Origin: Spirochaetota bacterium
GTDB taxonomy: Bacteria; Spirochaetota; Brachyspiria; Brachyspirales; JACRPF01
NCBI GenBank assembly: GCA_038043445.1
Contig: JBBTBY010000072.1
Location: 29,887-93,886, forward strand
Length of the DNA: 64,000 bases
Reading direction: 5' to 3'
A model generated the notes under the pieces. It searched no databases and had not been told where the DNA came from. It saw only the letters and a program-made list of their open reading frames with translations. The position numbers and the translations under genes are program-made. Shown in pieces: positions 48,211 through 61,619 of the stretch; the first letter of the stretch is position 1, and each line of letters begins with the position of its first letter.

Positions 48211-48431
48211 AACTCCTTTTTCTTAAATGTACGCACTCACTCGTCCGATCGGCGCAAGTCGGCATCCATGCCTCGCACCGACTGACACGTCCATGTGTCA
48301 CGGTCAAGTGTAAAAACCACACGCGCCCTTGACCGTAGCGCAGGATGCGCGAGTGATCACGATCCATGGATGGCGATTTGTGCGACGCAAACTCGTTCGT
48401 GAGTATGGGAAAAAGAAAAAGGAGTTTCCCC

Positions 48432-48809
48432 ATGAATCACAACGAAATATCAGGAATAATCATTCAGAAGGCTACCACAATCCATCAATCGCTTGGCCCC
48501 GGGCTGCTAGAATCCGTTTATAAAAACATTCTCATCCATGAGTTGCTTGCCTGCGGCTTACACGCCGAGCCGGAAGTCATGATTCCCGTAAACTACGGCG
48601 GCAAAGTGTTCGAGTTCGGCTTCCGCGCAGACATTATCGTAGAAAATAAAATCATCATAGAAGTTAAGTCTGTAGAGAACGTACAGGCAATGCATATGAA
48701 ACAGCTGCTCACATATCTCAAGCTGACCAAACTTAGACTCGGCCTGCTCCTTAACTTCAACACCGTTCTTCTCAAAGACGGCATAATCCGCATTGTAAAC
48801 GGTCTGTAA
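48432..48809 (+). CDS. GxxExxY protein (PD-(D/E)XK nuclease superfamily, PDDEXK_3-like)
   Basis: ATG 48432 preceded by AAAAAGGAG. LGPGLLESVYKNILIHEL carries the G-x-x-E-x-x-Y signature. FRADIIVENKIIIEVK carries the D...ExK nuclease core. 125 aa. Confidence 0.8.
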   Translation: MNHNEISGIIIQKATTIHQSLGPGLLESVYKNILIHELLACGLHAEPEVMIPVNYGGKVFEFGFRADIIVENKIIIEVKSVENVQAMHMKQLLTYLKLTKLRLGLLLNFNTVLLKDGIIRIVNGL

Positions 48810-49418: not shown

Positions 49419-49506
49419 GGAGAGGTAGCCTAGCTGGTTAAGGCGTCAGTTTGCTAAACTGAAGTGGATTTATTTCCACGCGCGGGTTCAAATCCCGCTC
49501 TCTCCG
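49419..49506 (+). tRNA. tRNA-Ser (anticodon GCT), class II with long variable arm; CCA not encoded
   Basis: Hand-folded. Acceptor stem GGAGAGG/TCTCTCC. D-arm GCCT-AGCTGGTTA-AGGC. Anticodon stem TCAGT/ACTGA with loop TTGCTAA. Variable stem GTGGA/TCCAC. T-arm GCGGG-TTCAAAT-CCCGC. Discriminator G. Confidence 0.9.
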
Positions 49507-49532
49507 TATTCTGCTCCATCAAAAAGGATCAC

Positions 49533-50144
49533 ATGCATAAAGCCGCACTGTTACTCCTCGCCGCCGTCATCGTCTGCTCCGTACCGGCACACGCTGCAAA
49601 AGCGTCTGTTGCGACGAACGTACAGGCGACGAACACCGCGGCGGACACCCCGCTCTTCCTTACCGATCTCGAACGTGAGCGCTCCCCCGGGGTTTCGGGT
49701 TATTTCTGGATGGTCGTGCGTGCGCTCGTTACGATAGCGATATTCATCGGCGTACTCTATTTCATTTTTCTGTATCTGAAACGCCGATCGAACCAGCTCG
49801 GTCATTTCAATACGCTCGTCAAGGTTCTCGGGCTTACCCTTGTTGCGCCCAACCGCTATGTCTGTGTCATCGAGGTGGCCGAGGAGATATTCCTGCTCGG
49901 TGTCAGCGAGCACAATGTCAGCATCATCAAGGAGATAACCGAAAAGCACGCGAAGGACGCAATACGCATGCAATCGTCGCTCAATCCGCTCCCCGGCGAG
50001 AGCGTTCCCGGCACGCCGTTCTCCGAGGTCATCGCCACGGTCATGGAAGCGTTCAAGGTAAAACGTGCCGATAAAAAACCCGTCGATTTCGTCAACAATA
50101 TACGCGACCGCATTCGCACCCTCGGCCCGAAAAAAGATGAGTGA
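49533..50144 (+). CDS. FliO/FliZ-like single-pass membrane protein
   Basis: The start must be ATG 49533 because the tool ORF from 49464 overlaps the tRNA. Signal peptide, then a TM segment (VVRALVTIAIFIGVLYFIFLYLKRR), then LVKVLGLTLVAPNRYVCVIEVAEEIFLLGVSEHNVSIIKEI. This parallels the B. subtilis FliZ(FliO) layout as I recall it. Confidence 0.45.
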   Translation: MHKAALLLLAAVIVCSVPAHAAKASVATNVQATNTAADTPLFLTDLERERSPGVSGYFWMVVRALVTIAIFIGVLYFIFLYLKRRSNQLGHFNTLVKVLGLTLVAPNRYVCVIEVAEEIFLLGVSEHNVSIIKEITEKHAKDAIRMQSSLNPLPGESVPGTPFSEVIATVMEAFKVKRADKKPVDFVNNIRDRIRTLGPKKDE

Positions 50145-52304: not shown

Positions 52305-52993
52305 CCGAAGACGTTATACCGGATGATGCAGTACAGGGCCCTGAACGCATCCTTTAATCCGATCTTCTTCCCTTCTTCGTACGTCCTTCCGCTGTAGGAT
52401 ATCCCCACTTCATAGATGCGCGCATTGAGCTTCGCCACCTTCGCCGTTATCTCCGGCTCGAACCCGAACCGATTTTCCTGTATCGTAATGCGCTTGAGTA
52501 TATCGCGGCGGAACGCCTTGTAGCATGTCTCCATATCGGTAAGGTTCAGATTGGAGAACATATTCGAGGCCATGGTGAGCATCTTGTTCCCGACGGCGTG
52601 CCAGTAGTAGAGGACACGATGCGCTTCCGAGCCGATGAAACGGGAGCCGTACACGACATCCGCACGGCCGTCGACGATGGGGGCGAGCACTTTCGCTATT
52701 TCCCTGGGGTCATATTCAAGGTCGGCGTCCTGCACGATGACGATATCCCCTGTCGCCGCAGCGAACCCGCTCCGAAGCGCGGCGCCCTTGCCTTGATTCA
52801 CCTCATGGTACACTACTTTCTGCACTTTGCCTTTCAGCCGTTTCTCAATGACCTGCCGGGTATTATCGCGTGAACAGTCATCGACGAGGATTATCTCCTT
52901 TTTCGCCGGCATCTTCGCAGCGCGGACATGCGACACGAGCTCCTCAAGCGTTTTCTCTTCGTTGTAGACAGGGATCACGATAGTGACGGTCAT
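52301..52993 (-). CDS. family-2 glycosyltransferase, polyprenol-phosphate sugar transferase-like
   Basis: [16 protein letters not shown]...[10 protein letters not shown]...[10 protein letters not shown]. 230 aa. The stop overlaps the PBP1A stop (convergent, 4 nt). Confidence 0.75.
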
Positions 52994-53095
52994 TGCGGGC
53001 TCCTTTGTCGCTGCGGGAAGTATATACTATGTCAGTATACTTTCAATATATATGCCGATTTTTGCGCGCGTTTGGAACACACGGCATGATAGTCT

Positions 53096-53752
53096 TCACT
53101 TTATCGCGAATACCCAGAACTGCCCTTTCGCCATCATAAAACCGCAGGGGCTGAAGCCGTCGCTTACGCGGCCGGCCATATCCTTCTCGAGCGCAGCGGC
53201 CGTCTTGTACGCGGGCATTTCATACTCATCGATGATCGGCTCCGCCCACTTCACGAACAATACTGCGGCGACACCCTCGGATTCAAGTGTGAAGCCGATC
53301 GGACAATAGCCTTTGCCTTCATAATCGTCGACAAGATTATCGAACGTCGAGCCGAGTTTTGCAGACAGAACGATCGCCTCGGTCACCGGCTCCTCGAAAC
53401 GCACATAGAGCACGAAACATTGCGTCGCCGACCACGCGATATCGCACGGCGTATTCCCTTTCTTGATCTCGGCGCCGATGGCGGCGACGGCTTCGGCCGA
53501 ATTCCTGTAGGTGCCGATATGCCATGCCTTGGCTTCCTTATCGGGATCGATGTCGAAGAGCACATACAGCGTTTTCGCCGTACCCTGCACTGCAAGCTCA
53601 ATGCCCACCGGCGCATAGCCCTGTGTCACCATAGCATCGATCTCATCTTTTATCTTCTGCTTGCCGGGCGTGTACTGCTTCATGACGACCGGCGCGGCCG
53701 ATATGCCGACAGCGAATGCCGCGAGTACCGCAAGGAACCGATATGCACGCAT
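53096..53752 (-). CDS. secreted protein built from four divergent ~45-aa repeats (G-[YFN]-x-P-[VCI]-[GD]-[IF] motif); function unknown
   Basis: Signal peptide MRAYRFLAVLAAFAVGISA. Repeat cores TQGYAPVGIELAVQG, KKGNTPCDIAWSATQ, GKGYCPIGFTLESEG and SDGFSPCGFMMAKGQ are each followed by a hydrophobic strand (LYVLF, FVLYV, AVLFV, FWVFA). Confidence 0.55.
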   Translation of the reverse strand: MRAYRFLAVLAAFAVGISAAPVVMKQYTPGKQKIKDEIDAMVTQGYAPVGIELAVQGTAKTLYVLFDIDPDKEAKAWHIGTYRNSAEAVAAIGAEIKKGNTPCDIAWSATQCFVLYVRFEEPVTEAIVLSAKLGSTFDNLVDDYEGKGYCPIGFTLESEGVAAVLFVKWAEPIIDEYEMPAYKTAAALEKDMAGRVSDGFSPCGFMMAKGQFWVFAIK

Positions 53753-53791
53753 GGAATACTCCCGCCGCCGTTCGCGGCCAGATATCTTGTT

Positions 53792-53820
53792 CGTACCGTG
53801 CGCTCAGTATAATCAATCGG
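53792..53820 (+). promoter_or_regulatory. putative promoter of the NRPS gene (perfect -10, poor -35)
   Basis: TATAAT at 53815-53820. The best -35 candidate is cTTGtt around 53793-53798. Confidence 0.3.
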
Positions 53821-53866
53821 CATGACAATGCAAGTCAGATATCCTCTCTGCTGAGAATAGGCCCCG

Positions 53867-56800
53867 ATGGCTGGCAAAAATCATGTTTCCATCGTACAGT
53901 ACCGGGAACTAACTGGAAATATCGATCGTCATACCGGAAGCCGTATGGATGCACTATCATTCCTTGCAAACCCCGTCCCATCGCTTCTCGGCGAAGGCTC
54001 GCTCGTCGGGCTTTTTGACGACAGCGCGCGGCGCCACCCGGAGAACATAGCCGTCGATCATGACGGCGCGCAGATAACCTACGATGCCCTTTCTGCGAGC
54101 GCTTCCCGATTCGCAGGCCATCTCACGCAACGCGGTATCGGCAAAGGCGACCGCGTCGCGATACTCATGCGCAAGTCGCTCGGGCTCTACGCATCCATCA
54201 TCGGCGTTCTTCGTACGGGCGCGTCCTACGTCCCTCTCGACCCCGAATATCCTGCCGACCGCATCGCCTTCGTGCTCGATGATTCGCGCGCGAAGTGCAT
54301 CGTAACGGCGGCTGAATTCCGGGGCATGCTTTCAGGAAAGACACCGGCGATATGCATCGACGATGATGAAGCCGCTATCCGCGGACATGAACCGCTCTTT
54401 CGCGCATCACCCGCCGCTCCCGATGACGAAGCGTATGTCATCTATACCTCGGGCAGCACCGGCAGGCCCAAGGGCGTCATGGTATCGCACGCGAACGCGC
54501 GGCATCTCGTCATAGCCGAACAGACGATGTATCGTGTGCAGAAGAACGATCGCGTACTGCAGGGGTTCTCCATCGCATTCGACGCTTCCATCGAGGAGAT
54601 ATGGGTGACATTCCATGCTGCGGCAACGCTCGTTGTCGGCACCGAGCGCATCATGCGCGGCGGACCGGAAACACGGGAGATGCTCTCTGCACGCCATATC
54701 ACCGTGCTCTCCTGCGTGCCGTCATTTCTCACGATGTTCGAGGACAGTGTGCCATCGGTACGCATGCTCATCGTCGGCGGCGAGGCATGCCGCGAACAGC
54801 ATGTAGCCGCATGGTTCTCACCCGGACGCGTCATCTATAATACGTACGGACCGACCGAAGCCACCGTCGTTGCGACGATAAGCAGGATGCATCCCGGAAA
54901 AGCGGTGACGATAGGACGCCCCATCCCCAACTACACATGCTCCATCATGAATGCCGCACAGGAGCTGCTCCCGCGCGGTGAAAGCGGCGAGCTCGTGCTC
55001 GGCGGCGCCGGGGTGACAAAAGGATACGTGGGCCGAGACGACCTTACCCGCGAACGATACATCGAGAACCGACACACCGCCGTTACCGGCGACACGAGCC
55101 CCCGATTGTACCGCACCGGCGACCGTGCGCGTATCAACGAGCAGGGGGAGATCGAATTCCTCGGGCGTACCGATTCGCAGATAAAGATACGCGGCTTCCG
55201 TATCGAAGTGAGCGAGATAGAATCGGTGCTCGTCGAGGTCACCGGCGCACGGAACGCCGTCGTCGTCGCACGTCGGGAAAAGGAGAACCACTTCCTCTGC
55301 GGGTATGTGGAATCGGATACCGCATTCGATGAACGATCGGCGATTGCCAGGCTCAGGGAAAAGCTCCCCGCATACATGGTCCCGGCATCCATCGATGCGC
55401 TCGCCGAATTCCCGCGGCTCCCGAGCGGCAAGATCGATACGGGGCGTCTCCCCGCACGCACGATATCCCCGGCGAAGACCGACCTCAACGACCCCGTAAA
55501 GAACCATATCTATCACCTCTGGTGCGAACTCTGCGGGACGACGGCGATCGGCGAGAACGATGATTTCTTCACCGCGCTCGGCGGTCATTCGCTCCTTGCG
55601 GCGCGATTCGTTTCACGCATGCGCACCGATGCGCGGTTCTCGCGGCTCTCCATGCGCGATCTCTACGACCACCCCTCGATCGCATCGCTTGCAGGACTTC
55701 TCGCGAACGCCGCCCCGGAATCAGCACGGCAGCGCGCGTTCAGACCGATACCGCAGTGGCGGCATACGATAAGCGGCATCGCCCAGGCGCTCATGCTCTT
55801 TATCGTCATCGGGTTCTATTCCCTGCAATGGGCGACACCGTTCGTCGTATACAGTTACTTTCACGCATATGAATACGAACAGCTCTACTCGGTCATCGCA
55901 GCTGTCGCGGCGCTCTGTCTCGTCTACCCCACCATGCTCATCATCGCAGTGCTGCTCAAATGGATAGTGCTCGGCCGGGTCCGGGAAGGCGATCACCCCC
56001 TCTGGGGCGCGTATTATCTGCGATGGACGTTCGTGCATCACATGCTCGGCTGTCTCCCGCTGCAATTCCTCTCCGGCACACCGCTCATGAACGCGTATCT
56101 CCGCGCATTAGGTGCACACATCGGTGCACGCACCCACATCGATTCCGATCTCGTCGGCGGACTCGATATGATATCCGTCGGCGCGGACACGGTCATCAAT
56201 GCCGATGCGAACATCTCCTGCCACGCGGTAGAGAACGGGCTCCTCAAGATACGTTCGATACGGATCGGGAACGATGTCTGCATCGGCGCGCGCGCGGTCG
56301 TGGCGCAGGATACCGTCATCGGATCCAATGTTCTGGTCGATGAGCTCACCGCTATCGCACCGGGGATGCGCCTCTCGGACGATACACGCTGGGGCGGATC
56401 GCCTGCGGCATGCATCGGGGGACGGGCGTCCGCGGGGGCGCCCTCCGCCGTACCGCCGGTGAGGAACGCACTGGTGACCATGTTCTTTGCGGCATGCTTC
56501 TTCATTCTTCCGACGCTCGGTCTTCTCCCGGTGTTCCCGGGCGTCATGCTCATGTACAACATCGACTATGCGAGCGAGAATTATTTCTACCTCATTGTCG
56601 CCCCGCTCGTCGGCGCATCGTTCGTCCTTTTCTCCGCGATCATGATAGTCGCCGTGAAATGGCTCGTGCTCGGGAAACTGCGGGAGGGGTCCTATCCCCT
56701 GCGGAGCGTTTTCTATGTCCGCAAATGGCTCTTCGATAAATTCATGGAGATAAGCCTCGGCACGCTCGGCACGCTCTATGCCACGCTCGCCGTGCTCCCC

Positions 56801-57871
56801 TGGTATCGTGCGCTCGGCGTATCGCTCGGCAAACGCGCGGAAGTGTCGACCGCGTCGTTCATACTGCCGGACCTGCTCGAGATCGGACAGGAAAGTTTCA
56901 TCGCCGACGGCGTAGGGCTCGGTGCGGCGCGCATCGAAGCGGGGCGCATCATCCTCAAGCGGACGAAGCTCGGCAGCCGAACGTTCATCGGCAACAGTGC
57001 GTTCATCCCGAACGGCACGGTCATCGACGATAATTGCCTCATCGGATGCCAGACCATACCGCGCGATGCGTCGGTACCGTCGGGCACGGCCTGGGTAGGT
57101 CATCCGGCCATGTATCTCCCGCGGCGCGCGAGCGGCACCGGATTCGCGGAGGAAACGACATACACCCCGAGTATAAAGCTCTATCGCAGGCGGCTTGCCA
57201 TCGAACTCCTCCGCATCATACTCCCCTCGACGGCGTTCATCGTCTTCACATCGCTCCTTCTCTCATTGTTCATCATCATCGAAGATCACGTACCGATGTG
57301 GCAGGCGCTCCTGGCATTCCCGCTCATCTACTGCGTGCTCGGCACCGCCGCCATCGCCGTCACGGCGCTCCTCAAACGCATCGTTATCGGGCGCTACGAA
57401 CGGGGGGAACATCCGCTCTGGAGCACCTTCGTCTGGAAGACCGAATTCATGACGGGTTTCATCGAGAATTTCACCAACCCGGTGTTCGCATCGCATCTCA
57501 GGGGCACGGTGTTCCTGCCATGGTATTTCCGCCTGCTCGGGATGAAGATCGGCAAGCGCGCGGCGATGCATACCATGGATATCACCGAATTCGATCTTGT
57601 CACGCTCGGCGACGATGTAGCGCTCAACGACGACTGTACGATACAGACGCATCTCTTCGAGGACCGTGTCATGAAGCTCGGGACCATACGCATCGGGTCG
57701 CGGGTCTCCGTGGGAAGCGACACCCTGGTGCTCTACGACACCGAACTCGAAGACGATGTATCGGTCGGCGATCTTTCGCTCGTCATGAAAGGAGAGCACC
57801 TCTACGCACGGGAGTCATGGGCCGGATCACCGGTAACACCGACGGTACGCCCCGGCGAAAAGCAGGTATGA
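53867..57871 (+). CDS. Pls/PosA-family single-module non-ribosomal peptide synthetase (A-PCP plus three [2 TM + hexapeptide-repeat] C-terminal modules); epsilon-poly-L-lysine-synthetase-like
   Basis: Adenylation core motifs YTSGSTGRPKGV, NTYGPTE, YRTGDRAR, GRTDSQIKIRGFRIEVSEIE and PSGKID. PCP motif FFTALGGHSLLA. These are followed by three repeats of two TM helices + KW(I/L)V(L/I)G(R/K)xxEG(D/S/E)(H/Y)PLW + a left-handed beta-helix hexapeptide segment. No C or TE domain. Alternative start at ATG 53945 (MDALSF). Confidence 0.85.
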   Translation: MAGKNHVSIVQYRELTGNIDRHTGSRMDALSFLANPVPSLLGEGSLVGLFDDSARRHPENIAVDHDGAQITYDALSASASRFAGHLTQRGIGKGDRVAILMRKSLGLYASIIGVLRTGASYVPLDPEYPADRIAFVLDDSRAKCIVTAAEFRGMLSGKTPAICIDDDEAAIRGHEPLFRASPAAPDDEAYVIYTSGSTGRPKGVMVSHANARHLVIAEQTMYRVQKNDRVLQGFSIAFDASIEEIWVTFHAAATLVVGTERIMRGGPETREMLSARHITVLSCVPSFLTMFEDSVPSVRMLIVGGEACREQHVAAWFSPGRVIYNTYGPTEATVVATISRMHPGKAVTIGRPIPNYTCSIMNAAQELLPRGESGELVLGGAGVTKGYVGRDDLTRERYIENRHTAVTGDTSPRLYRTGDRARINEQGEIEFLGRTDSQIKIRGFRIEVSEIESVLVEVTGARNAVVVARREKENHFLCGYVESDTAFDERSAIARLREKLPAYMVPASIDALAEFPRLPSGKIDTGRLPARTISPAKTDLNDPVKNHIYHLWCELCGTTAIGENDDFFTALGGHSLLAARFVSRMRTDARFSRLSMRDLYDHPSIASLAGLLANAAPESARQRAFRPIPQWRHTISGIAQALMLFIVIGFYSLQWATPFVVYSYFHAYEYEQLYSVIAAVAALCLVYPTMLIIAVLLKWIVLGRVREGDHPLWGAYYLRWTFVHHMLGCLPLQFLSGTPLMNAYLRALGAHIGARTHIDSDLVGGLDMISVGADTVINADANISCHAVENGLLKIRSIRIGNDVCIGARAVVAQDTVIGSNVLVDELTAIAPGMRLSDDTRWGGSPAACIGGRASAGAPSAVPPVRNALVTMFFAACFFILPTLGLLPVFPGVMLMYNIDYASENYFYLIVAPLVGASFVLFSAIMIVAVKWLVLGKLREGSYPLRSVFYVRKWLFDKFMEISLGTLGTLYATLAVLPWYRALGVSLGKRAEVSTASFILPDLLEIGQESFIADGVGLGAARIEAGRIILKRTKLGSRTFIGNSAFIPNGTVIDDNCLIGCQTIPRDASVPSGTAWVGHPAMYLPRRASGTGFAEETTYTPSIKLYRRRLAIELLRIILPSTAFIVFTSLLLSLFIIIEDHVPMWQALLAFPLIYCVLGTAAIAVTALLKRIVIGRYERGEHPLWSTFVWKTEFMTGFIENFTNPVFASHLRGTVFLPWYFRLLGMKIGKRAAMHTMDITEFDLVTLGDDVALNDDCTIQTHLFEDRVMKLGTIRIGSRVSVGSDTLVLYDTELEDDVSVGDLSLVMKGEHLYARESWAGSPVTPTVRPGEKQV

Positions 57872-57889
57872 CGATAGATACATCCGCGC

Positions 57890-57947
57890 ATGATCCAAAA
57901 TGATCCATAAATGATTCATTGACAACATGCTCGCTGCGATATATAGT
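57890..57947 (+). promoter_or_regulatory. Rrf2-gene promoter preceded by three phased direct repeats ATGATYCA
   Basis: ATGATCCA (57890-57897), ATGATCCA (57900-57907) and ATGATTCA (57911-57918), spaced 10 and 11 nt. Immediately followed by TTGACA (57919-57924), a 17-nt spacer and TATAGT (57942-57947). GGAGG SD precedes ATG 57992. Confidence 0.5.
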
Positions 57948-57991
57948 ATCGCCGGAATCGAAAATGACTACCGGGTGGAAGGAGGCAATAC

Positions 57992-58438
57992 ATGAAAGTG
58001 TCCACCATCGGCAGATACGCCACGTGCGCGCTCATCTGCCTTGCAGAACGATACGGCAAAGGACCGACGTCGCTCTCGAAAATAGCGAATGAGCAGCAGA
58101 TATCGGTGAAGTACCTTGAGAACATCATGCGCATTTTCATAAGCCACGGGGTGGTCGCAACGACCAAGGGCGCGCATGGCGGTTTCACCCTCACAAAGAA
58201 CCCGCGCACCGTACGCATGGGGGATGTGATAACCCTCGCCGAAGGCGTGGTGCTCCCCATTCACTGCATGGAGGACAGCGATCTCTGTCCGCGGCGGGGC
58301 ACCTGTCCTGCGAAATACATGTGGAGGGACCTGCAGAACGGCATCATCGACAGCCTCAACAGGAATACGCTTTATTCTCTCGCGCAGCAGAAAAAGAAGC
58401 TTGCGCAGGAAAAACCGAAGCGCAGACAGAGCGCATAA
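57992..58438 (+). CDS. Rrf2-family transcriptional regulator (IscR/NsrR-like, probable Fe-S cluster ligands)
   Basis: MKVSTIGRYATCALICLAE...ISVKYLENIMRIF wHTH. Cys cluster HCMEDSDLCPRRGTCPAKYMW (C-x6-C-x5-C). Confidence 0.85.
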   Translation: MKVSTIGRYATCALICLAERYGKGPTSLSKIANEQQISVKYLENIMRIFISHGVVATTKGAHGGFTLTKNPRTVRMGDVITLAEGVVLPIHCMEDSDLCPRRGTCPAKYMWRDLQNGIIDSLNRNTLYSLAQQKKKLAQEKPKRRQSA

Positions 58439-58458
58439 CAGGCGGCATCCGTCCACCG

Positions 58459-59241
58459 CTATTGCCCATCCCCCAAGTCCAGTTCGTTCGCATCTTCCGC
58501 CGGGGCGACACCCGAATTCGAATCGCATTCTGCGTGGTAATCGCAATACGCGCATGACTTCCCTGCATTGGGATCGTACACCGTATCATGCTCTATCTCT
58601 TCGACAAGTTCGCATATCATATCATGGATGCGCGCTATCTTTTCGTGCGTGAATTCGACCGTATCGCAGCAGTCCTCACCGAGATGATAATACACCCCGG
58701 TCTCGACCGGGCGCTCTTTACTGTTCAGGAGGAGCGCATATACCTTAAGCTGCATCGTATGGCGTTCGCGGTCCTTCCCTTCCAGCTCCTTGAAACGGTT
58801 CGTCTTATAATCGATGATGGAGAGCGCGCCCGAGGGCGATATATCGACGCGGTCGACGCGGCCGTAGAGAATGAAACCGTTAAACCGGTTCTCCATGTGC
58901 TTTTCCATGATATACGGCTTCACCGCGCCGAAACGGCGGTGGAAGTTCGCGAGCATGCGAAGCCCCTCCTCGCCGAATTCCTTCTCCTTCTCGCGCGAGT
59001 CGAAGAATTCCCTTGCGGAGCTCCGCTTCCATATCGAACGGAAATCGGCATGGAGCGCATCGAGCGTACGCGCCTCGGCGTTCAAACGGTAGAATTCCTT
59101 GCAGGCTAGATGCACATTGCCGCCGAGTATATTGTACGGCGTAACGGCCATCGGCGTTCTTTTTTCCTTGATGTAGCGGTGATAGTACTTGCGCGGACAG
59201 GCGAGATACATGGCAAGCCGGTATTCGCTGTAGCGTATCAT
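58459..59241 (-). CDS. Cas4/RecB-like PD-(D/E)XK nuclease with 4-Cys (Fe-S) signature
   Basis: N-terminal Cys (YLACPRKYY). GRVDRVD...IIDYKT (D...D-x-K core). QLKVYALL (QxxxY). C-terminal CAYCDYHAEC (C-x2-C-x5-C). Confidence 0.7.
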   Translation of the reverse strand: MIRYSEYRLAMYLACPRKYYHRYIKEKRTPMAVTPYNILGGNVHLACKEFYRLNAEARTLDALHADFRSIWKRSSAREFFDSREKEKEFGEEGLRMLANFHRRFGAVKPYIMEKHMENRFNGFILYGRVDRVDISPSGALSIIDYKTNRFKELEGKDRERHTMQLKVYALLLNSKERPVETGVYYHLGEDCCDTVEFTHEKIARIHDMICELVEEIEHDTVYDPNAGKSCAYCDYHAECDSNSGVAPAEDANELDLGDGQ

Positions 59242-59248
59242 CGATGCC

Positions 59249-59998
59249 TCAGCGAAAGAGCGGAGGTATCACGGACAGTATTTCCGGCCCAAGGAACATT
59301 CGCCAATAATAAAGTATGGGACTTAATATCTTCCCTATGATACCGAACATCATGAGCAGTAATAGTATTAAAAAGCCTTTTGAATAGAACCGGTCGAACA
59401 GCATCTTGCCGCTGACCGGCAGGAAATATCTGAGCACCCAGCCGCCATCGAGCGGCGGTATCGGCAGCAGATTGAACACCATGAGTATCATATTGACGAT
59501 ATACGATGTATAGAATATCACGATAAGGGTGACATACGCTATGACCGCTGCCTGCGCCATGCCTTCCGGCACCATGCGGATGAGCGCAAATGCCGCCGGC
59601 GCATTCCCGCCGGACATCGACGGGAGCGTGAACGTGAGCAGTTTGAGCATGCCGAATGAAACGGCGATGAGCAGCAGGTTCGAAAGCGGCCCCGCGACCG
59701 ACACAACGGCCTGATGGCGCTCAGGGTGGCGGAAATTAAGCGGGTTTATCGGCACCGGCTTCATCCAACCGAACACCGGCAAGCGGAGGAATATCGCCAT
59801 GAGCGGGAGAATTATCGTTCCGAATATATCGATGTGTTTCAGCGGATTGAGCGTGAGCCGCCCCTCGGCTTGCGCTGTCCTGTCACCGAAGTACCGCGCG
59901 GCAAGCGCATGACCGAATTCATGGCAGGTCGCCGAAAAAATAAAGATGATAAAGAAGACGGAGCCATGTATTATTGTTGCAAGTATGTTCGCGATCAT
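59249..59998 (-). CDS. site-2 protease family (M50) membrane metalloprotease
   Basis: ATG 59998 (MIANILATII); the tool's longer ORF to 60178 would overlap nnr. HEFGHA zinc motif in the first TM region. Polytopic. Confidence 0.75.
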   Translation of the reverse strand: MIANILATIIHGSVFFIIFIFSATCHEFGHALAARYFGDRTAQAEGRLTLNPLKHIDIFGTIILPLMAIFLRLPVFGWMKPVPINPLNFRHPERHQAVVSVAGPLSNLLLIAVSFGMLKLLTFTLPSMSGGNAPAAFALIRMVPEGMAQAAVIAYVTLIVIFYTSYIVNMILMVFNLLPIPPLDGGWVLRYFLPVSGKMLFDRFYSKGFLILLLLMMFGIIGKILSPILYYWRMFLGPEILSVIPPLFR

Positions 59999-60047
59999 TG
60001 CTGAATTATACTCACTGAGGATCGATTTTGCAACACAACGTTTCTGC

Positions 60048-61619
60048 TCATTTGATGATCCGTGTTCGTATCGATCGAAGTGCATGCCCGACCGCCCGCG
60101 ATACATCCGACGGCTGAATCTCATCGGCCGAGCTTCGGGTGCGCATGATGCGGAACGCCTTTCCGTGCGCATATACACCGAGCGTCATTGCGTCATGCAT
60201 CGAGAACCCGCGCGCGAGAAGACCGGTGATGATGCCGGCGAGCACATCGCCCATGCCGGCTTTCCCCATTCCGTATTGAGGGCGCGCATGAACCGCTATG
60301 CCTGCATCGTCCGAGATGAACGTGACCGCGCTTTTAAGAACAACACCCGCCTTCGTACGTTCGCGGAATGCGGCGAGTTTATTGAACGCATCGCTCTGTA
60401 TCTCATCCGCCGGAATATCGACAAGGCGCGAAAATTCGTCGACATGCGGCGTCAGCACCGTCGATGATGACAGTTTCGGCATCAGCTCCTTGTTGCGCGA
60501 AATGAAATAGAGACCGTCCGCATCGACGACAAGCGGTCTGTCGATACGCGGCACGAGCGCATTGAGAAGATCGCCCGTCTCGGCATGACGGTCCACGCCG
60601 CAGCCGATGAGCACGGCACGCGCATGCTTCATCTCTTTTTCGATCTGCGGGATATGCGGTGCGGAAAAATGCCCGTCACCCTTCCGCCCTACCCCGACGG
60701 TAACGACTTCCGGCGGAAGACGCTTTCTTATATCGTCGCGAATGGCGTACGGCACGAGCAGACGAATATACCCGACGCCGAGGCGATAGACCGCACTTGC
60801 CGCCAGCACCGCTGCACCGGGATACTGTTCGCTCCCGGCGATGATACACACGGATGCCGATCGTTTGCTCGCAAAGGCATCATCGGGACAATTGATCTTG
60901 GAAAAGCCCCGAGCGGAGAGGAGCATCGGTGCGCCCGGCTTGCGGAGCCGCTCGCGGGGGAACATCGACGGGACTACGGACAGCCGCCCGATGAAGCGAG
61001 TATACGGCTCGAGAAAGAATATATCCTTGGGGGCGCCGACGGTTATCGTATGATCCGCCTTGACGCATACGCTGCCGCTGCCTATCGCCGGCAATCCGGA
61101 GGGTATATCGAGCGATATCCGTATCCCTTTCGATGCGTTCATCGCCTCAACCATACGCTTCGGCACGCCTTCGATATTCCTGTCAACGCCGGTACCGAAA
61201 AGCGCGTCGACCATCACTGCCGACGACAATATCCTTCGGCATGCATCATCGACAGAAGTTTCATCGATAAAAGCAGCATCGACGCCCTCGGAAGAAAGGA
61301 GCGATAGATTCGTACGCGCATCAGCGCTCAAATGTTCACGCGTACCAATGACAAGCACATCCGCTGCGACATCGCTTCGTACGAGAAGACGCGCGAGCGC
61401 AAGGCCGTCACCGCCGTTATTGCCGGTACCGCAGATGATGATCGATCGCCCACGGCGGGCATATCGTATGACATGGCGGAACATTCCCGCGGCAGCATGC
61501 TCCATGAGAAGCAGCGACGGCATACCGTCCGCGATGACGCTTCTGTCAAGCGCCTGCATATCGGCTATGGAAAGTATGTTCACCGCTTGCGCCAGGAGGG
61601 CGCTGCTGGCGGCGGCCAT
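60048..61619 (-). CDS. nnr: bifunctional NAD(P)H-hydrate epimerase / ADP-dependent NAD(P)H-hydrate dehydratase
   Basis: 523 aa. The N-terminal YjeF_N part carries GTGNNGGDG. The C-terminal carbohydrate-kinase part carries GGAGMGDVLAG-like GKAGMGDVLAGII. An alternative GTG start at 61583 would give a 4-nt GTGA overlap with the upstream stop instead of a 40-nt overlap. Confidence 0.85.
   Translation of the reverse strand: MAAASSALLAQAVNILSIADMQALDRSVIADGMPSLLLMEHAAAGMFRHVIRYARRGRSIIICGTGNNGGDGLALARLLVRSDVAADVLVIGTREHLSADARTNLSLLSSEGVDAAFIDETSVDDACRRILSSAVMVDALFGTGVDRNIEGVPKRMVEAMNASKGIRISLDIPSGLPAIGSGSVCVKADHTITVGAPKDIFFLEPYTRFIGRLSVVPSMFPRERLRKPGAPMLLSARGFSKINCPDDAFASKRSASVCIIAGSEQYPGAAVLAASAVYRLGVGYIRLLVPYAIRDDIRKRLPPEVVTVGVGRKGDGHFSAPHIPQIEKEMKHARAVLIGCGVDRHAETGDLLNALVPRIDRPLVVDADGLYFISRNKELMPKLSSSTVLTPHVDEFSRLVDIPADEIQSDAFNKLAAFRERTKAGVVLKSAVTFISDDAGIAVHARPQYGMGKAGMGDVLAGIITGLLARGFSMHDAMTLGVYAHGKAFRIMRTRSSADEIQPSDVSRAVGHALRSIRTRIIK

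Follow-up and report, generated by a model that had tools for sequence, protein, structure and literature searches.

The iterative mechanism of Pls, the ε-poly-L-lysine synthetase of Streptomyces albulus, was reportedly established by Yamanaka et al. in 2008, and W646 and L883 of the S. albulus enzyme are said to have been described as chain-length residues by Hamano in 2014. In Pls, lysine (Lys) is adenylated and loaded onto the thiolation (T) domain, and the thioester is attacked by the ε-amine of a free Lys or of a growing chain that is itself free; the chain grows without a template and without a thioesterase (TE) domain, and its length is set by the synthetase, with an influence of the linkers between the transmembrane (TM) helices (PMC8506220). 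PldII, a binuclear-Zn aminopeptidase-like enzyme, is translationally coupled to pls. PosA of Acinetobacter baumannii is the sole member of the Pls/PosA family studied from a diderm host, and its polymer has been made in vitro only. Members are known from many bacterial phyla, spirochaetes included, with Lys-type specificity codes also outside Actinomycetota (Patel & Gulick, PMC10522769). Here we describe a gene of this family at positions 53867..57871 (+) of a 64,000-nucleotide stretch (the window) from a Spirochaetota bacterium. We consider it likely that the encoded protein is a homopolymer synthetase of the Pls/PosA type that is anchored in the inner membrane, stands alone and works iteratively, and whose most probable product is an ε-poly-L-lysine-type polycation joined through the side-chain amine.

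The open reading frame (ORF) is single, intact and uninterrupted; in its longest form it begins with ATG and, stop codon included, encodes 1334 aa. The real start is probably M27 (nt 53945), giving 1308 aa, because the N-termini of homologs and the GenBank model (1308 aa) agree on this position; the longest-ORF start lies 26 codons 5' of the GenBank start, and GGAAG precedes M27. A database search returned an identical protein, MEK6795423.1, from a 134.7-kb contig of a Spirochaetota bacterium metagenome-assembled genome (MAG), where it is named "Pls/PosA family non-ribosomal peptide synthetase"; the family-level call is already public in GenBank, and the protein joins a known enzyme family. 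An earlier note on this DNA, written from the letters alone, had described a 1334-aa ORF with adenylation (A) and carrier domains, had seen no condensation, epimerisation or TE domain in it, and had assigned it to the Pls/PosA family. All of this held up. Every motif quoted in the note is found in the translation; Pfam detects only AMP-binding, AMP-binding_C, PP-binding and Hexapep in the protein, and no Condensation, epimerisation or Thioesterase domain. Residues 639-1323 (685 residues) match positions 2-695 of 695 in the NCBIfam profile TIGR02353 (Pls/PosA family non-ribosomal peptide synthetase, NRPS) with 613.5 bits, where the curated cut-off is 423.1, and the GenBank name agrees. At the sequence level the protein thus carries all the marks of the family that were looked for, namely the profile match, the A-T layout, the TM units with left-handed β-helix (LbH) domains, and the Asp and Glu residues of the specificity code.

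The A domain spans residues 50-522 (54014..55432, +), on the evidence of Pfam AMP-binding (residues 50-387, E 2e-79) and AMP-binding_C (450-522), by TIGR01733 (409 bits) and by alignment to the crystal sequences 7wew and 8g95. It is followed by the carrier (thiolation) domain, residues 548-612 (55508..55702, +; Pfam PP-binding 1.5e-9), whose serine for phosphopantetheine attachment is Ser575 (nt 55589-55591), within the motif GGHSL. In an alignment of the query with its 119 best homologs this serine is invariant (120/120), and the core motifs of the A domain, like all family-invariant residues, are retained in the synthetase.

The ten-residue specificity code reads DAESIGTVVK and consists of D239, A240, E243, S282, I302, G304, T326, V334, V335 and K522. 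Code positions were set by hand on the GrsA numbering (235, 236, 239, 278, 299, 301, 322, 330, 331 and 517), and the register was checked by HMMER alignment to the A-domain crystal sequences of PosA and Pls; both reproduce the code that the earlier note had read. A 134-residue segment spanning the pocket was compared with the NRPS sequences in the PDB. It aligned to the PosA A domain (8g95-98) at 113 bits and gap-free, to the Pls A domain (7wew) at 103 bits with a single one-residue gap outside the code positions, and to any other NRPS at no more than 50 bits. The aligned columns read DAESIGTVV(K) in the query, DAESIGTVV in Pls and DMEHNGTVS in PosA, the latter two matching their published codes. 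The query is identical at 10/10 positions to the published code of S. albulus Pls, DAESIGTVVK, for which L-Lys has been confirmed experimentally (Patel & Gulick 2023, PMC10522769, Suppl. Table 2). The Lys-type code proposed in the note stands, whereas its nearest match is not DAESIGSVCK (BacB), as had been suggested, but Pls itself.

Position 2 of the code gates side-chain length, with Ala for Lys, Met for ornithine (Orn) and Phe for diaminopropionic (Dap) and diaminobutyric (Dab) acid (Patel & Gulick, PMC10522769). The Asp at position 1 and the Glu at position 3 bind the α- and side-chain amines and are conserved in characterised family members; both are present here as D239 and E243. The query lacks the PosA-type code DMEHNGTV[S/T]K and its Met at position 2, having A240, S282, I302 and V335. 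Among the 120 aligned sequences, DAESIGTVVK occurs in 22 and DAESIGTVIK in 92, and since 114/120 carry DAESIGTV[V/I]K, the Lys-type pocket is a property of the clade and no one-off. Because the ten-residue pocket is the same as that of Pls, the A domain should adenylate L-Lys.

The C-terminal half is built of three similar units, each with a pair of TM helices. A 19-residue Kyte-Doolittle scan revealed six strongly hydrophobic segments in three pairs, at residues 633-661 and 672-705, 865-897 and 905-939, and 1109-1144 and 1145-1175. The units, residues 633-864, 865-1108 and 1109-1334, resemble one another at 25-30% identity (BLASTP E 2e-22, 8e-29 and 1e-14), a likeness well above chance. Unit 1 (55763..56458, +) comprises TM1 and TM2, the motif KWIVLGRVREGDHPLWG and the LbH soluble domain C1; unit 2 (56459..57190, +) comprises TM3 and TM4, the motif KWLVLGKLREGSYPLRS and C2; and unit 3 (57191..57868, +) comprises TM5 and TM6, the motif KRIVIGRYERGEHPLWS and C3. 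The three tandem copies of two TM helices plus a hexapeptide β-helix proposed previously were thus recovered by both hydropathy and BLASTP, and the consensus then given for the stretch behind the helices is approximately right when set against KWIVLGRVREGDHPLWG, KWLVLGKLREGSYPLRS and KRIVIGRYERGEHPLWS. Since the TM helices are paired and a K/R-rich motif (KW.V.GR) follows each even-numbered one, the A and T domains and the three LbH units are predicted to face the cytoplasm.

A confident AlphaFold2 (AF2) model of residues 620-1334 (715 aa; 60-sequence alignment) was obtained with a mean predicted local distance difference test score (pLDDT) of 91.4 and a predicted template-modelling score of 0.91, and is laid out as three repeats, in each of which two long helices lead through short helices to a β-helix. 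In Foldseek searches against the PDB each soluble unit matched LbH proteins with prob 1.0 and TMt 0.4-0.54, as local matches only; the targets were trimeric hexapeptide N-/O-acetyltransferases, serine acetyltransferase, LpxD and γ-carbonic-anhydrase-like proteins. No solved full-length relative of the C-terminal polymerase was found in the PDB, where a sequence search gave weak LbH matches only. In the published AlphaFold and RoseTTAFold model of PosA, three β-helices pack as in an acyltransferase trimer and sit on a bundle of six helices, and our model is consistent with it.

The most conserved stretch of the alignment lies in unit 3. QTHLFEDR (residues 1260-1267; 57644..57667, +) is invariant in all 120 aligned sequences and occurs in unit 3 only, and K1270 is equally invariant. 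The equivalent positions of the other two units vary, with H786 in unit 1 (mostly Tyr in the family) and A1021 in unit 2. The motif also occurs in PosA and in a probable Pls C-terminal fragment from Streptomyces diastatochromogenes. We infer from this conservation that QTHLFEDR may be the catalytic centre of the polymerase, in which case unit 3 would provide the catalytic base and units 1 and 2 would act as scaffolding or substrate-channel elements. The literature searched contained no mention of the QTHLFEDR string, and keyword searches on the catalytic residues of C1-C3 gave nothing past PMC10522769.

These features suggest the following route. The cytoplasmic A domain, with its Pls-identical pocket, would adenylate L-Lys, which the phosphopantetheine arm of Ser575 would then carry as a thioester, the arm presumably being attached by a phosphopantetheinyl transferase (PPTase) encoded outside the window. 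In the C-terminal domain, whose architecture, with three LbH acyltransferase-like units fused in one chain and carried by a bundle of six membrane helices, is seen in the sequence and the model, the putative chemistry would be that of Pls: the side-chain amine of a free lysine or of a free chain would attack the thioester, with no template and no TE, and QTHLFEDR in unit 3 may contribute the catalytic base. The polycation would leave the cytoplasm through or along the helix bundle. Product, linkage, chain length and biological role are all read here from sequence.

The next-best homologs are 59%, 58% and 56% identical to the query, the first and third coming from MAGs labelled Spirochaetes or deposited at NCBI. 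Further homologs, Methylococcaceae included, lie at ~52-53% identity, and a very large set from Planctomycetota, Verrucomicrobiota and other environmental bacteria lies at 42-46%. QTHLFEDR, picked automatically as the pattern for a scan of GTDB species genomes, also revealed relatives in Acidobacteriota, Bacteroidota, Proteobacteria, Cyanobacteria and Actinomycetota. The S. diastatochromogenes fragment is cut short by its contig at both ends, and its alignment around TM1-TM2 is poor; over the C-terminal half it shares 37-39% identity with the query. This figure, measured against a partial sequence, is borderline beside a published criterion of at least 40% identity and 80% coverage to an experimentally confirmed Pls (PMC8117764).

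A neighbour-joining (NJ) tree of the C-terminal domain was computed from BLOSUM62 distances without support values, and is a crude tree whose branching is indicative only. It places the query in a subclade of spirochaetes and Methylococcaceae, sister to a large DAESIGTVIK clade from planctomycete-, verrucomicrobial- and acidobacterial-type genomes. PosA, which is 34% identical to the query overall, falls in a more distant Orn-type subclade, and the probable Streptomyces Pls fragment is placed among actinobacterial Dap-type enzymes. Another lineage has Lys-type codes as well, in Hymenobacter and an alphaproteobacterium, beside a β-Lys-type code. DAESIGTV[V/I]K codes are present in at least two separate C-terminal lineages of this tree, with the actinobacterial lineage as a likely third, which hints that the A-domain pocket and the polymerase may have had discordant histories.

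The synthetase gene stands alone, and its neighbourhood is not conserved among homologs. Upstream lie a gene for a 218-aa signal-peptide protein on the opposite strand, a GT2 glycosyltransferase gene and a class A penicillin-binding protein (PBP) gene (PBP1A); downstream, an Rrf2 gene is followed by genes for a PD-(D/E)XK nuclease, an M50 peptidase, NAD(P)HX repair, a polyprenyl synthase and LpxD. The upstream secreted repeat protein and the downstream Rrf2 regulator named previously as flanks were both found. The Rrf2-family gene (57992..58438, +) has a promoter-like site of its own at 57919-57947 (near-consensus TTGACA-17-TATAGT) and has no counterpart at any of the six homologous loci examined; a role as pathway regulator was rejected as unsupported, and the gene is probably unrelated to the synthetase. 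An Rfam scan of 52900-58600 (E<=1) returned no lysine riboswitch or other RNA element. The GC content at third codon positions (GC3) of the synthetase is host-like, at 0.74 against 0.69 +/- 0.04 (within ~1.2 standard deviations, SD); recent horizontal transfer, suggested by an overall GC of 0.605 (~2 SD over the window mean), is unconvincing beside this GC3.

The divergently transcribed neighbour, MEK6795422.1 (53096..53752, -), is a 218-aa signal-peptide protein of four ~50-aa repeats. A full-length homolog with 41% identity (locus L001, 7172-7855, +) is encoded directly upstream of the 59%-identical synthetase in another spirochaete MAG. Beyond this pair of genes the loci have nothing in common, and the orientation of the homolog differs. 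An exhaustive HMMER search found only 65 cluster representatives of the family, nearly all of ~220 aa with a signal peptide and four repeats; the repeats are of β-α-β-β type with the motif G-[YWF]-x-P-x-G ... VLY. With a pI of ~4.8 the mature form is acidic; the protein matches no Pfam family, and its confident AF2 model (pLDDT 92.6) has no informative match in the PDB. A general role as partner of Pls enzymes was rejected, two distant members of the family not being encoded beside synthetase genes; on the two genomes in which they adjoin, the protein may nevertheless be linked to the synthetase.

Several observations weigh against the preferred reading of an ε-poly-L-lysine-type product. The clade of the query has no characterised member, the nearest studied proteins being PosA (34%) and the probable Streptomyces Pls fragment, and in the NJ tree the query clade stands apart from the actinobacterial lineage that holds this fragment, while both it and its DAESIGTVIK sister nest beside Orn-type (DMEHNGTV[S/T]K) enzymes, mostly from Gram-negative bacteria. 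Code-based prediction has also failed once already in the Pls/PosA family, for PosA: its nearest code was of Lys type, yet it prefers Orn 160-fold, and its M218A mutant still prefers Orn. No PPTase (PF01648) was found in the 64-kb window, either by Pfam on all sizeable ORFs or by tblastn (E<=1) with three PPTases from homologous loci; in the three closest homologs an ACPS-type PPTase gene overlaps the synthetase stop codon, a position at which Rrf2 lies in the window. Unlike in Streptomyces and Corynebacterium pls, there is no operon partner of PldII type beside the synthetase, and no Pld-like peptidase was found anywhere in the 64-kb window; the absence of a nearby PPTase and self-resistance peptidase, as remarked in the earlier note, thus extends to the window as a whole. 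The M50 peptidase (59249-60178, opposite strand) was considered as a Pld analogue and set aside, as there is no evidence for it and PldII is a different, pls-coupled enzyme of the aminopeptidase-like type. Finally, the outer membrane of spirochaetes leaves export past the periplasm without explanation; no route across a diderm envelope was seen, and secretion of an antimicrobial polycation, as proposed in the earlier note, is a conjecture. We hold the product call at likely and no higher because the pocket points to Pls, the polymerase is nearer to Orn-type enzymes and the clade lacks a characterised enzyme.

The alternative that survives best accepts the polymer and changes its role: instead of a secreted antibiotic, the product would stay in the periplasm or at the surface, where it could contribute to envelope charge, to adhesion or to the modulation of biofilms, or store nitrogen. 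Near the synthetase no component for export across the outer membrane of these diderm bacteria was found, a linked self-resistance peptidase is missing, the only phenotype of the PosA knockout is a slight biofilm change, and the neighbours include the envelope genes PBP1A, GT2, LpxD and polyprenyl synthase as well as the secreted protein. However, the characterised polymers of the Pls/PosA family are all antimicrobial, and with a neighbourhood that is unconserved among homologs the envelope context may be a coincidence. We regard an envelope role as possible, though clearly the lesser prospect.

A second alternative keeps the family and the mechanism and changes the monomer or product, to δ-poly-ornithine, to a polymer of β-lysine, of Dab or of an as yet undescribed basic amino acid, or to an oligomer that is mixed or very short. 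The clustering of the C-terminal polymerase domain with Orn-type enzymes speaks for it, as do the misleading nearest-code match of PosA, where M218A alone gave no switch to Lys, and the activation of unexpected substrates such as Arg by family members with unusual codes. The pocket speaks for Lys: the query equals Pls at all ten code positions, well beyond position 2, the published codes for Orn (DMEHNGTVSK), Dap/Dab (DFE...) and β-Lys (DGESVSVVNK) are clearly different, and the Lys-type code is kept clade-wide. Another monomer or product appears unlikely.

It is more doubtful still that the gene, although intact, yields an effectively silent or inactive apo-enzyme whose dedicated PPTase has been lost or displaced. 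The missing PPTase is the ground for this idea. ACPS-family (PF01648) genes overlap the synthetase gene in each of the three closest homologs (56-59% identical synthetases; L001 11924-12532, L002 11936-12463 and L003 9906-10496), and related PPTase genes flank the more distant members at L019, L020 and L021. Three other members of the clade, at L004, L005 and L006, also have no adjacent PPTase, however; a PPTase encoded beyond the 64 kb of the window could serve the synthetase in trans; and the ORF is uninterrupted, with its A-domain motifs, carrier Ser and family-invariant residues kept.

A composite of these ideas, to which we likewise give little weight, would make the query part of a large uncharacterised Lys-coded clade of diderms in Spirochaetota, Planctomycetota, Verrucomicrobiota, Acidobacteriota and Methylococcaceae, with a polymerase that is PosA-like by descent. 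Lysine-polymer synthesis would then have arisen or re-assorted independently of Pls, the product would belong to the envelope, and the acidic repeat protein at 53096-53752 would bind, anchor or neutralise the polycation in the periplasm. An ε-poly-L-lysine-type product of an active, iterative synthetase remains the reading that we prefer.

Other genes in the window deserve mention in their own right. Two PD-(D/E)XK nuclease genes are present, a PDDEXK_3 gene at 48366-48809 (+), ~5 kb upstream of the synthetase, and a PDDEXK_1/Cas4-like gene at 58459-59241 (-), just past Rrf2. A FliO-like gene (PF04347, E 3e-11; 49464-50144, +) stands alone directly 5' of the class A PBP gene, remote from any other flagellar gene in the window. 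Positions 6188-33454 hold a dense block of genes for plant-polysaccharide degradation, with a GH141-like β-helix protein, DUF4838/CBM9, a GH127 β-L-arabinofuranosidase, GH123-like and GH3 enzymes and two rhamnogalacturonase/pectate-lyase-like genes, together with AraC and IclR regulators, an aldehyde dehydrogenase, an enolase-superfamily enzyme and an ABC permease, a content that would fit a free-living saccharolytic spirochaete.

As annotation the analysis adds little, since the GenBank family name is correct and spirochaete members had already been noted by Patel & Gulick (2023). What goes beyond the existing annotation is the exact identity of the code with that of Pls, the asymmetric conservation of unit 3, the absence of a PPTase by comparison with the closest kin, and the possible linkage to the repeat protein. 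ε-Polylysine, a polycation that penetrates cells, is approved for preserving food. Should the product be confirmed, production of ε-polylysine-type polymers would be extended to Spirochaetota, and the very large pool of Lys-coded synthetases in uncultured diderms would become a source of chain-length variants. The enzyme also offers a test case for two questions about the family, namely where the C-terminal catalytic centre lies, with QTHLFEDR as the candidate, and what function a polycation has in a diderm cell.

Compared with the described systems, the synthetase shares with Pls (S. albulus, BAG68864.1; 7WEW) the order A-T-(TM1-2)-C1-(TM3-4)-C2-(TM5-6)-C3, the lack of condensation and TE domains and the ten-residue code DAESIGTVVK, and with the probable Streptomyces Pls fragment the motif QTHLFEDRVMK in C3. 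It differs from Pls in having no translationally coupled PldII peptidase beside it and in its host, a diderm spirochaete rather than an actinomycete, and the Streptomyces fragment, at 37-39% identity over the C-terminal half, belongs to another C-terminal lineage of the NJ tree. PosA (A. baumannii, ATY43264.1; 8G95-8G98) resembles the query in architecture, in the TIGR02353 match, in being encoded by a stand-alone gene and in having a diderm host; the two are 34% identical over the full length, and their pockets align gap-free (113 bits). Orn-type enzymes adjoin the query clade in the C-terminal tree, with PosA itself more distant. The codes are different, DMEHNGTVSK in PosA against DAESIGTVVK, with Met replaced by Ala at the chain-length-gating position 2, and the predicted monomer is therefore Lys and not Orn.

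The wider comparison is with the LbH acyltransferases, such as maltose/galactoside O-acetyltransferase, serine acetyltransferase and LpxD, whose fold is common to the three units of the query. In the model these units pack in a trimer-like manner, as the subunits do in trimeric LbH acyltransferases. In the query, however, the equivalents of the subunits are fused in one chain, at 25-30% identity to one another and with TM hairpins between them, the acyl donor would be a carrier-protein thioester instead of acyl-CoA, and the invariant His/Glu/Asp motif is found in unit 3 only.

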